This document shows positions 32,649 through 34,626 of a DNA stretch of 64,000 nt, in pieces. Positions within the stretch are counted from its first letter, which is position 1; each line of letters opens with the position of its first letter. Both the position numbers and the translations under genes were made by a program. Under the pieces are notes generated by a model that was not told the DNA's origin, made no database searches, and was given only the letters and a program-made list of their open reading frames with translations. This DNA is from Candidatus Babelota bacterium (GTDB lineage: Bacteria > Babelota > Babeliae > Babelales > CAIQNR01), in the NCBI GenBank assembly GCA_965658655.1, contig CBFHTA010000001.1:178507-242506 (forward strand). Reading direction: 5' to 3'.

Positions 32649-34091
32649 CTAAGACTTTAAACGGTGGTAACGTTTTTCCCATTGAGAAACAGTGAAGGGG
32701 TCATGTTTTTCTGTTTCTGAGTAATCATCCCACTCTTTTTCTTTAATTGAAACAAGTTTTTTATGGAGTGATTCTCCCAATGATTGTTTCATAAGATCGC
32801 TATTTTTAAAGAGAGCAACGCTTTCACCAAGAGAGCTTGGAATTATTTTAATATTAAGTTCTTCGCACTCTTCTTTGGTTGATCGGTATAAGTTATGCTC
32901 AATATGTTGAGGAGCAGCGGTTTTGTTTGCAATGCCGTCGAGCCCTGCATTAATAATACCAGCAAAAAGAAGGTAAGGGTTAGAGCTAGGGTCAGCAGAA
33001 CGGAATTCCATTCTTGTTGGCGCACCATTGGTTTCTATAAGTTCATCAGTGCTTGTTTCTGGGATGCGAATAGCAGTGCTTCTGTTTTTGAATCCCCAAG
33101 AAAGATAAACAGGTGCTTCGTATCCTGGAACAAGGCGTTTATATGAATTTACTGAGGAGTTGAGAAGCAAGGTCATTTCTTGCAAGTGTGCAACGTTTCC
33201 GCCAATAAAGTAATGCGCTGTTTCTGATAAGAATCCAGGTTTTTCTGCATCGTAGAAAGCATTTTTATTTTCTTTAATATCCCACAGGCTGCAGTGAACA
33301 TGCATGCCGCTACCATTTACTCCGGTAATTGGTTTTGGCATAAAGCTTACATAGTACCCATCAAAGTGCTGAGCTATACGTTGTGTAATGTGCTTGGTAA
33401 GAAGTAAAGAGTCAGCTATTCGGAGAGGGTTTTGGTAGCGCAATACGATTTCATATTGTCCTGGAGCAACTTCATGATGAGCTTTTTCTATATCAACACC
33501 GGCGAGAAAAAGACCATTTAAAAGAGCGCTTTTAAATGTTTCCAATTCTGTGGTTGGTAAAGCGTCACAGTATCCACTGCTATCTACAGGAACTAAATCT
33601 CCATTATTATCTTTTTTAAAGATAAAGAATTCAAGTTCGAGCCCAACATTAATGTTATATCCAGCATCTTCTGCTTTCTTCATCGCTTTCTTTAAAATAG
33701 TGCGAGGAGAATCTTGATATTTTTCTGTAGGAGAAGTGTACATGTCGCAGAAAAGGTAGCCAGTGGACATTTGCTTGGTCCATGGGCTTAGAAAGAAACC
33801 AGAAAGATCTACTTTAGCAAGCAGGTCACTTTCGTTAATGTTGGTACACCCAGCAATAGAAGACCCATCAAAATATGCTCCTTTTTCTATAGCACCAGCA
33901 ACTTTATGAAAAGGAAATGTGAGAGATTTCAGTGTTCCATGAATATCAGAGAAAAGTAATTCAACAAAACGAGTTTGTGAATCCTTATAATAAGAAAGCG
34001 CTTCTTCTGCTGTCTCGGGATTTTTAAATCCGTCAGCGGAGATAGATAAGCATGATAATAACAACCCTAAAAATAATGATCGCTTCTTCAT
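32649..34091 (-). CDS. glnA: Glutamine synthetase type I with an N-terminal signal-peptide-like extension
   Basis: Start set at the ATG at 34091 (AAAGGAG Shine-Dalgarno 7 nt upstream) instead of the track's 34190. GS motifs FDGSSIAG, ELEFFIF, HHEVAPGQYEI, KPITGVNGSGMHVH, NSYKRLVPGYEAP, RIP...R.EFRSADPSSNPYL. The N-terminus reads MKKRSLFLGLLLSCLSISA|DG. Confidence 0.9.
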   Translation of the reverse strand: MKKRSLFLGLLLSCLSISADGFKNPETAEEALSYYKDSQTRFVELLFSDIHGTLKSLTFPFHKVAGAIEKGAYFDGSSIAGCTNINESDLLAKVDLSGFFLSPWTKQMSTGYLFCDMYTSPTEKYQDSPRTILKKAMKKAEDAGYNINVGLELEFFIFKKDNNGDLVPVDSSGYCDALPTTELETFKSALLNGLFLAGVDIEKAHHEVAPGQYEIVLRYQNPLRIADSLLLTKHITQRIAQHFDGYYVSFMPKPITGVNGSGMHVHCSLWDIKENKNAFYDAEKPGFLSETAHYFIGGNVAHLQEMTLLLNSSVNSYKRLVPGYEAPVYLSWGFKNRSTAIRIPETSTDELIETNGAPTRMEFRSADPSSNPYLLFAGIINAGLDGIANKTAAPQHIEHNLYRSTKEECEELNIKIIPSSLGESVALFKNSDLMKQSLGESLHKKLVSIKEKEWDDYSETEKHDPFTVSQWEKRYHRLKS

Positions 34092-34158
34092 AGAAACTCC
34101 TTTGTGAAATGTGTTTAAGAATGGGATAGTTATAGAGTATTTATGCTTGACCGTCAAC

Positions 34159-34626
34159 TTAGGTGAGGTTCCATTTATGCGCAAAATCATTTATGGCACC
34201 GTCTTCTGACATTTCTAACAGTGTGGCATATGTGCGTTTAAATAATTGTGGATTGTGGGCAGATACAACCAGTACATTAGGGTTTTGCGTATTGTCTAAA
34301 GATGTAATTGCAAGGTTTTCTTCTTGTTTTATCAATTTTCTAGGAAGAATGGCACAATGGGTCTGTCCTTTTTTTATATCTTCTATAGCTTTTTCGACTG
34401 AACAAACATGGACTATTGGCTTTTGTGTCATACGGTGAGATAGGTCTTTAATAATGTCCGAAGTAAATCCTTGTTGATTTTCCTTCGCTTCAGTAGTTGC
34501 AATTGTTAAAGTACTAAGCGGTTGGCTGGGTGCAAGTGTGTTTCTTTGAACTGAGTAGTAAGCCACATAGCAAGTTGTTCCCAAAGCAAAAATAAAGATA
34601 AAAGTTTTTGTGTGTTTCATAGTCAA
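34159..34626 (-). CDS. Truncated family-3 solute-binding-protein-like periplasmic protein
   Basis: 155 aa. N-terminal anchor/signal (TFIFIFALGTTCYVAYY). GFTSDIIKDLSHRMTQKPIVHVCSVEKAIEDIKKGQTHCAIL resembles the first lobe of amino-acid SBPs, and the C-terminus (EDGAINDFAHKWNL) resembles the SBP C-terminal helix. The middle lobe is missing. Confidence 0.45.
   Translation of the reverse strand: MTMKHTKTFIFIFALGTTCYVAYYSVQRNTLAPSQPLSTLTIATTEAKENQQGFTSDIIKDLSHRMTQKPIVHVCSVEKAIEDIKKGQTHCAILPRKLIKQEENLAITSLDNTQNPNVLVVSAHNPQLFKRTYATLLEMSEDGAINDFAHKWNLT

Follow-up and report, generated by a model that had tools for sequence, protein, structure and literature searches.

Glutamine synthetase (GS) is by textbook account a cytoplasmic enzyme, and the bacterial periplasm an ATP-free space. 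In plants and algae, GS2 is a cytosolic-type GS redirected by an N-terminal transit peptide to another compartment; the GlnA1 enzyme of Mycobacterium tuberculosis is not known to have a signal peptide, and the mechanism of its release from the cell is disputed. The GS gene considered here specifies a signal-type N-terminus of its own. It lies in a stretch of 64,000 nucleotides, referred to below as the window, which spans positions 178,507 to 242,506 (forward strand) of contig CBFHTA010000001.1, GenBank assembly GCA_965658655.1, from a Candidatus Babelota bacterium of the phylum Dependentiae, formerly TM6; the genome amounts to 0.93 Mb in 4 contigs and is 95% complete. An earlier note, made from the letters of the window, had read the gene as a GS with an apparent Sec signal peptide next to a truncated gene for a solute-binding-like protein. 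That first reading of a GS bearing an export signal is supported by the analysis that follows; export itself we infer from the form of the signal.

The gene runs on the minus strand from the ATG at 34091 to the stop at 32649 (32649..34091) and encodes a GS of 480 aa, type I-alpha. Translated from that ATG the product reads MKKRSLFLGLLLSCLSISADGFKNPETAEEALSYYK; its first 20 residues (codons 1-20, 34032..34091, minus strand), MKKRSLFLGLLLSCLSISA with D as the next residue, resemble a signal peptide placed ahead of a complete GS fold. They comprise an MKKR n-region of charge +3, a 15-residue uncharged core, SLFLGLLLSCLSISA (residues 5-19), which is too short for a membrane span, and a cleavage-type site, ISA followed by D. 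The charged n-region, hydrophobic core and small residues at -3 and -1 of a Sec/signal peptidase I (SPI) signal are all present, and a cut between A20 and D21 would leave a GS of ordinary length. Neither the MKKR n-region nor the others listed for the clade show the RR that we take to be the mark of a twin-arginine (Tat) signal. N-termini of the same style are found on undoubted envelope proteins of this genome—BamA, two secretins (GspD), an OmpA-family protein, an AmiC-like amidase and an S41 protease (Prc)—and the n/h/c layout first pointed out for the GS holds up well beside them: the enzyme is probably exported by the Sec route.

This N-terminus is an add-on, separate from the enzyme fold. 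Solved GS structures align to the window GS only from residues 23-31 on, none before 23, and the Pfam Gln-synt_N match begins at residue 40, so that GS homology does indeed begin only past the N-terminal segment. For comparison we took 99 GS without a signal from among the top matches of the database search and aligned them with 31 rows of the signal-bearing clade; ahead of the first conserved strand the window GS has 41 residues, which is also the clade median, whereas the signal-less 99 have a median of 20. AlphaFold's model of the enzyme, made from a 30-row alignment (predicted local distance difference test, pLDDT, 88.5; predicted template-modelling score, pTM, 0.90), leaves residues 1-20 detached: a lone helix at residues 2-15, with pLDDT 44-51, is followed by a linker, and the fold opens with the helix at 28-37.

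A strong AAAGGAG Shine-Dalgarno (SD) sequence (34097..34103, minus strand) stands five nucleotides (TTTCT) ahead of the ATG at 34091; the earlier note had seen it correctly, while its spacing of 7 nt reflects a different way of counting. An alternative in-frame ATG at 34190 would give a product of 513 aa; this ATG has no ribosome-binding site ahead of it, and the longer frame would run into the end of the upstream gene. Orthologous frames, read at 16 loci, open at most 7 codons ahead of the signal-type Met, and an SD-like motif precedes the signal-type start in all ten orthologues of the first set of relatives described below and in 20 of the 21 of the further set. Because the SD is found only there and orthologous frames open no more than 7 codons earlier, we take 34091 as the true start. 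The signal cannot be bypassed from downstream either, as had been claimed: codons 2-107 contain no ATG and no GTG, and their sole TTG, codon 10, lies within the hydrophobic core. Not until codon 108 does another ATG follow, no usable non-ATG start lies between the hydrophobic segment and that codon, and a protein begun there would lack the greater part of the N-terminal beta-grasp domain, with the invariant D75-G-S-S among the residues lost.

Both GS domains pass their Pfam gathering scores, the beta-grasp Gln-synt_N domain (residues 40-119; 33735..33974, minus strand) with 73.8 bits (cut-off 33.4) and the catalytic Gln-synt_C domain (residues 128-461; 32709..33710, minus strand) with 349.8 bits (cut-off 24). 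The NCBIfam GlnA equivalog, TIGR00653, is missed by 7 bits (422 against a cut-off of 429.15), and the other GS-like NCBIfam models—type III GS, gamma-glutamylputrescine synthetase, GlnII—score far under their cut-offs. Among PDB entries, alpha-type GS match best and over their full length (E 4e-107, for 8OOW, to 5e-91); B. subtilis 4LNF matches at E 2.8e-99, its residue 5 pairing with residue 28 of the window GS. Beta-type structures, from E. coli/Salmonella and M. tuberculosis, match the central part only (E 1e-61 to 1e-69), and by these sequence matches the window GS is of the alpha subtype, not the beta (adenylylated) one. It retains 86 of the 91 near-invariant columns, defined as those at least 97% invariant in the 99 signal-less GS. 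Kept in all 31 clade rows are D75-G-S-S, E152, E154, Y174, H205, E207, Q212 and E214, and likewise H264, R319, E325, R337, R342, R360, E362 and R364; such columns we take, from E. coli and B. subtilis GS, to be the metal, ATP, glutamate and ammonium sites. With these catalytic positions intact, the product is predicted to be a catalytically competent type I-alpha enzyme. The clade has peculiarities of its own: Phe175, beside the active-site Tyr, is replaced by Cys (F175C) in 27 of 31 clade rows and in none of the 99 other GS, and a short loop is inserted at residues 350-354, in Gln-synt_C. The window GS has in addition a C-terminal insertion at 461-467 and a two-residue deletion near 165.

Conservation of the add-on was followed in two sets of relatives, one of 40 genomes and the other a 251-genome sample of the phylum, in which all listed genomes are labelled as the same order. 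The first set yielded ten orthologues (E 1.7e-189 to 3.8e-81), in every one of which a Met with an SD ahead of it opens a hydrophobic segment; an eleventh match (G026) scores weakly and probably belongs to another type of GS. The second gave a GS match in 44 genomes, the window's own included, from which 21 further loci were read (12 were left out). Twenty of these have the same signal-type start in frame. In the 21st (G208, locus L134) an SD and MKKVLYITTLMVMLAEHVYA are present, one frame off the GS body, in a single-contig genome, the result of either a frameshift or an assembly error. Overall, the GS start region was read in 31 Candidatus Babeliales relatives, 30 in frame and one frame-shifted, and the extension is thus shared by orthologues, as the earlier note required. 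It is present also in 20 metagenome protein clusters: P0003-P0019, which are 464-486 aa long with 92-100% query coverage, and P0043, P0061 and P0066. Most other GS among the matches listed are 436-462 aa long and lack the front part. As a separate observation, the GS of relative G019 (L078:7414-8715, plus strand) ends early at a TAA, its 433 aa comparing with 460-490 elsewhere and its C-terminal helices being lost; that of G218 likewise shows one TAA.

The n/h/c layout is seen in 28 of the 31 clade rows, the exceptions (P0007, P0010 and P0015) being N-terminally short gene calls; for P0010 and P0015 the nearest cluster has the full signal. From among the best-scoring other GS 99 were compared, and none has the add-on. 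In a FastTree tree of 130 rows the 31 add-on rows form one clade with support 100 and with no signal-less GS inside it; its sister is the signal-less P0120. Scanning contigs with the window GS brought up nothing but remote GS that lack a signal (Melainabacteria, Clostridia, Desulfobulbales, archaea), at 31-46% identity and in most cases matching from about residue 27 on; these were of use as outgroup. Within the clade, identity falls to 38%, and the add-on is conserved while its sequence drifts. The simplest history, judging from these alignments, would be a single acquisition of the signal, its retention through divergence, and many losses of the whole gene.

The signal-bearing enzyme is the only GS of its genome. 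A PF00120 search gives one match, so that no second, cytoplasmic glnA accompanies it, and every GS-positive relative of the 40-relative and 251-genome sets likewise has a single GS match. The genome does encode cytoplasmic users of glutamine—GatA, CTP synthase and two GATase_6 enzymes (frames of 662 and 629 aa)—and the cell therefore needs glutamine in the cytoplasm. It also encodes, in tandem, four genes of the ATP/ADP-translocase family (Pfam TLC; G000:C1:489882-495556, frames of 444-477 aa), whose TLC matches are modest at 16-55 bits per matched stretch; from these four genes it follows that host nucleotides must reach the periplasm.

Sixty-seven nucleotides upstream of the GS gene, on the same strand, is a gene (34159..34620) whose product has 153 aa from its ATG, or 155 aa from TTG 34626, and which the earlier note had taken for a truncated remnant of a family-3 amino-acid-binding protein. 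The family assignment is borderline for the window protein, where SBP_bac_3 (PF00497) scores 24.9 bits, just below the cut-off of 26.4; orthologues directly upstream of GS in G001 (32.7 bits) and G012 (49.5 bits) pass that cut-off. With 153 aa the protein falls short of the two-lobe form, which has a hinge and about 230-260 aa. Its AlphaFold model (pLDDT 80) consists of an N-terminal helix, residues 2-28, and then one alpha/beta lobe; the predicted 27-residue helix would anchor it in the membrane. Isolated single lobes are the best matches to the model (template-modelling score 0.62-0.65 on the target, root-mean-square deviation 3.2-3.8 Å, 120-136 alignment columns), and whole two-lobe binding proteins rank after these single-lobe constructs. 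The assignment of one lobe rests on this fold comparison and not on BLAST alignment to the G019 binding protein; the latter had aligned the relic to the C-terminal half of that protein, and the fold comparison instead points to a lobe like "domain 1/A". Reduction to a single lobe thus stands, and decay does not: six protein clusters of exactly 153 aa are 58-69% identical to the relic, which on this conservation is a stably maintained small protein and no decaying remnant. Four of the six are on contigs equal in length to contigs of GS clusters, which suggests that in those cases the two genes share a contig.

A connection with amino-acid import proves stronger than was first proposed. In G019, which belongs to a different family, one strand carries in order an ArgR-type repressor, a full SBP_bac_3 protein of 252 aa, a BPD_transp_1 permease, an ATP-binding cassette (ABC) ATPase and the signal-bearing GS. 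Of 32 loci, inspected with flanks of no more than about 1.5 kb, eight have a permease and/or ATPase gene of a polar-amino-acid ABC importer immediately ahead of GS and on its strand, and in four more a binding-protein gene adjoins GS, three of them in the short form. The G019-type permease is matched in 27 of 41 genomes.

The account that we favour, and to which we would give an even chance, is that the GS, once exported by Sec, works in the periplasm, where it turns host glutamate and ammonium, at the expense of host ATP, into glutamine that the cell takes back up. The signal peptide would have been gained in the common ancestor of the Babeliales GS lineage, in front of an otherwise complete enzyme. 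The GS would cross the inner membrane via Sec, lose its signal by cleavage, and fold and assemble in the periplasm of a host-dependent energy parasite, there to use host-derived glutamate, ammonium and ATP, the ATP being the same that crosses the outer membrane toward the ATP/ADP translocases. Its glutamine would then be bound and imported for GatCAB, CTP synthase and other amidotransferases, the ancestral route of uptake being presumably the polar-amino-acid ABC importer encoded directly upstream of GS. The parasite would gain in that host ATP covers the cost of its glutamine and the product is caught right at the membrane.

Several points weigh against this account. The periplasm is classically ATP-free, and ATP is placed there only on the strength of the translocases. 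Activity of GS requires an oligomer, whose subunits share active sites, and we know of no precedent for assembly of such an enzyme after Sec transport. Of the 251 genomes sampled from the phylum, 207 give no GS match, which makes the system dispensable. In the window genome (G000) the G019 permease as query finds no match, the importer having been lost here; the BPD_transp_1 genes are PotABCD-like only, an SDF-family transporter was sought and not found, and these PotABCD-like genes and one APC-family permease are the only candidates for re-import seen in this genome. The signal itself contains, at residues 11-14, a lipobox-like LLSC, seen also in the G010 orthologue and absent or in poor context in the closest relatives, P0003-P0008.

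The home-made rule by which signals were scored is a further weakness. It flags 374 of 862 open reading frames (ORFs) in its loose form and 270 in its strict form; for C. destructans, the main text of PMC6561590 gives 44% of coding sequences with a putative signal peptide by Phobius. When all 173 strictly flagged ORFs of at least 200 aa were annotated with Pfam, a domain start at residues 1-10 being counted as false, at least 20 of the 173 proved to be false positives with Rossmann-type N-termini, among them epimerases, GidA, CTP synthase and adenylate kinase. The rule is crude, and we rejected it as stand-alone evidence because it flags Rossmann-fold enzymes too. The GS is unlike these false positives in having a detached add-on, before a complete fold, that is conserved in orthologues.

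More tentatively, and with doubt outweighing belief, we can envisage that the Babeliales have moved part of core metabolism outside the cytoplasm, an oligomeric GS exported to periplasm or host and working there on host ATP and glutamate in conjunction with an importer being one of several signal-tagged "cytoplasmic" enzymes, together with the adenylosuccinate-synthetase-like protein, the Fe/Mn superoxide dismutase and the P-loop kinase described below. On this reading the periplasm of an energy parasite would be an ATP-containing metabolic compartment.

Among the other explanations, the one that survives best, though we think it unlikely, takes the GS further, to the host cytoplasm, by type II secretion or outer-membrane vesicles, for a host-directed supply of glutamine or detoxification of ammonia. 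The window does encode a type II secretion set (two GspD, GspC, GspF, GspG, PilM), in agreement with the description of TM6 by Yeoh et al. in the main text of PMC4776705, and C. destructans has budding outer-membrane vesicles and secreted effectors according to that of PMC6561590. Moreover, a Sec-to-host route must exist, because signals of the same type are carried by C2H2 zinc-finger, RING, ankyrin and leucine-rich-repeat (LRR) proteins that can act only inside a eukaryotic cell. What makes us prefer the periplasm is the size of the GS dodecamer, about 600 kDa, which is much larger than known type II cargo, and the conserved neighbourhood of importer genes with a periplasmic binding protein, more in keeping with glutamine made on the spot.

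It is also conceivable, but rather improbable, that the hydrophobic N-terminus does not export at all, the GS staying in the cytoplasm, perhaps at the inner membrane face near transporters, and serving ordinary nitrogen assimilation. This would accord with the cytoplasmic location of GS in essentially all bacteria, with the cell's requirement for cytoplasmic glutamine, with the lack of a recognisable glutamine ABC importer in the window genome, and with the certainty of ATP in that compartment. It sits poorly with the sequence of the N-terminus, in which a charged n-region, a 15-residue core and a small-residue site make up an export layout; the positive-inside rule would put the rest of the protein outside. 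The genome's undoubted envelope proteins have the same layout, and none of the 13 Pfam-annotated cytoplasmic proteins of the window is flagged by the signal rule.

Export followed by tethering at the outer face of the inner membrane, either through an uncleaved anchor or, in the window GS, as a lipoprotein modified at Cys14 of LLSC, is again improbable. The fit of residues 11-14 to the lipobox pattern, in the window and in G010, would suit the lipoprotein version, the uncharged runs of 22-24 residues in some orthologues would suit the anchor, and the neighbouring relic, too, has a predicted 27-residue anchor helix; yet the closest relatives, 71-80% identical, either lack the Cys or have it in poor context, and most cores are of 15-20 residues and are followed by small-residue sites.

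A new amide-forming job in the envelope for the exported enzyme, such as building or amidating a glutamate-containing wall polymer, is very improbable. A role of this kind was proposed for exported mycobacterial GS (PMC2193054). The shortfall of the score, 422 bits, just under the GlnA equivalog cut-off of 429.15, might hint at an altered function, as might F175C, confined to the clade in the comparison set, and the loop insertion at 350-354, and an M23 peptidoglycan peptidase gene adjoins GS in 12 of the 32 loci. The positions presumed to bind glutamate, ammonium and ATP are nevertheless kept in all 31 rows, and the M23 gene of the window is convergent with GS and therefore not co-transcribed with it. 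Finally, the possibility that the annotated start is an artefact, the real one lying elsewhere and no signal peptide being made, can appeal to the upstream in-frame ATG at 34190 and to three database relatives annotated with shorter N-termini, and is close to refuted by the strong SD found at the 34091 start only, by the want of a usable downstream start ahead of codon 108 and by the 16 orthologous loci whose frames open within 7 codons of the signal-type Met.

Enzymes other than GS also have signal-like N-termini in this genome. An adenylosuccinate-synthetase-like ORF of 499 aa (L099:18401-19897, plus strand, equivalent to G000:C1:332875-334374) begins with MKKLILVLLSVSLLIGSFLFVSKA and a Ser-rich linker, its Pfam domain starting only at residue 67, which makes it, after GS, another nucleotide-dependent "cytoplasmic" enzyme fronted by a signal-like add-on. 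A Fe/Mn superoxide dismutase (SOD; L109:1-681, plus strand) has a 20-residue signal-like N-terminus, MKKMFYSFVFLAVSTVPLFS, with the domain from residue 21. GS and SOD are the classic leaderless "exported" pair of pathogenic mycobacteria; here both have signals. A chloramphenicol-phosphotransferase-like (CPT-like) P-loop kinase (L103:15328-15978, plus strand) shows a signal-like N-terminus and a domain from residue 27, a thioredoxin-reductase/thioredoxin fusion (L117:7874-9358, minus strand) an N-terminal membrane anchor, and a spermidine-synthase-like protein and two M3 peptidases also have N-terminal add-ons. Among proteins of eukaryotic type, eight C2H2 zinc-finger ORFs, five of them in tandem, couple eukaryote-type DNA-binding domains to Sec signals (L110:1-3738, plus strand; L107:7654-9064, minus strand; L109:11085-11789, plus strand), and the genome's eukaryote-type RING, ankyrin and LRR proteins also bear signals.

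As for the surroundings of the GS gene, a terminator-like hairpin with a 13-bp stem and a T run (32462..32490, minus strand), found by consensus scan only, follows the end of the GS gene and lies ahead of the M23 peptidase gene that converges with it. A promoter scan gave five promoter-like sites, versus a mean of 9.8 in shuffled sequence, and none between the 153-aa gene and GS. Just upstream of the relic is a gene for a SET-domain protein, the domain being that of eukaryote-type lysine methyltransferases (34667-35308, minus strand, 68.4 bits); it lacks a signal peptide, and synteny extends to G001 and G010. RING-finger genes stand beside GS or just upstream of the relic in three relatives (L005:274-1461, plus strand; L006:2975-4057, minus strand; L004:3-893, plus strand), and the two of these ORFs that are complete have hydrophobic, signal-like N-termini. 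Elsewhere in the window, three consecutive very large ORFs (20138-31076, minus strand; 1397, 1054 and 1195 aa) have no Pfam match; all have hydrophobic signal-like N-termini, two of which pass the rule, and a PPPPPPPP run follows soon after that of the last. Two adjacent paralogous ORFs of 111 and 184 aa (37185-38075, minus strand) have in common the signal-like N-terminus MNTTFK(F/L)LLLS, and a glutathione peroxidase (40895-41446, minus strand) begins with a signal- or lipoprotein-like MKKYLFFALIPTCLFFTTYC.

As far as our searches reach, a signal-bearing GS has not been described before. The phrases "periplasmic glutamine synthetase" and "secreted glutamine synthetase" are absent from the literature searched, and that on "extracellular" or "exported" GS, in its accessible text, concerns M. 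tuberculosis, Acinetobacter and a few passing mentions. Searches of the same literature combining Dependentiae, Babeliales or TM6 with glutamine or its synthetase returned nothing relevant. In the main text, supplements apart, the word "glutamine" occurs neither in PMC6561590, where for C. destructans only a "glu/gln" conversion is mentioned, nor in PMC4776705, where "signal peptide" is likewise absent.

A sole-copy GS with an export signal, kept across an order of host-dependent bacteria, challenges both the assumption of a cytoplasmic enzyme and that of an ATP-free periplasm. These bacteria offer a testable case of a parasite spending host ATP outside its own cytoplasm. The "glu/gln conversion" of Dependentiae metabolic reconstructions should not be presumed cytoplasmic. 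An extracytoplasmic enzyme might also be more reachable for inhibitors and so represent a vulnerability.

Set beside known systems, the window GS is closest to the type I-alpha enzymes (B. subtilis GlnA, 4LNF/4LNN; archaeal 8OOW and 8OOL), which share its two domains and, apart from the first 20 residues, its length; it differs from them in the signal-type N-terminus, the 350-354 and 461-467 insertions, the deletion near 165, Cys175, the 7-bit deficit to the NCBIfam GlnA cut-off and the lack of a cytoplasmic copy beside it. The genes upstream recall GlnHPQ-type importers, of which G019 has the complete set of 252-aa binding protein, permease and ATPase before its GS, whereas the window genome lacks permease and ATPase and has only the 153-aa anchored single-lobe relic left; an ArgR-type repressor stands ahead of the G019 operon. 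Single lobes like that of the relic model are found in domain A of the LAO-binding protein (6XKS) and domain 1 of Thermotoga ArgBP (6Y16/7A99/6GPC), but those are laboratory truncations, only 10-15% identical, whereas the relic is a natural, conserved gene product with a predicted membrane helix. GS2 is sent by a eukaryotic transit peptide into an ATP-containing organelle; the window GS bears a bacterial Sec-type signal that would send it to a compartment thought ATP-free. A parallel in biology is M. tuberculosis GlnA1, a GS found outside the cell of an intracellular pathogen and tied to growth in host cells (PMC2193054). That enzyme is beta-type, and its structure (2BVC) matches the window GS only at residues 171-420, E 3.6e-61. 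To the long-debated leaderless "export" of GS, and of SOD, in pathogenic mycobacteria the Babeliales thus provide a counterpart, in which, unlike GlnA1, the export signal is encoded in the GS gene itself and conserved across an order.

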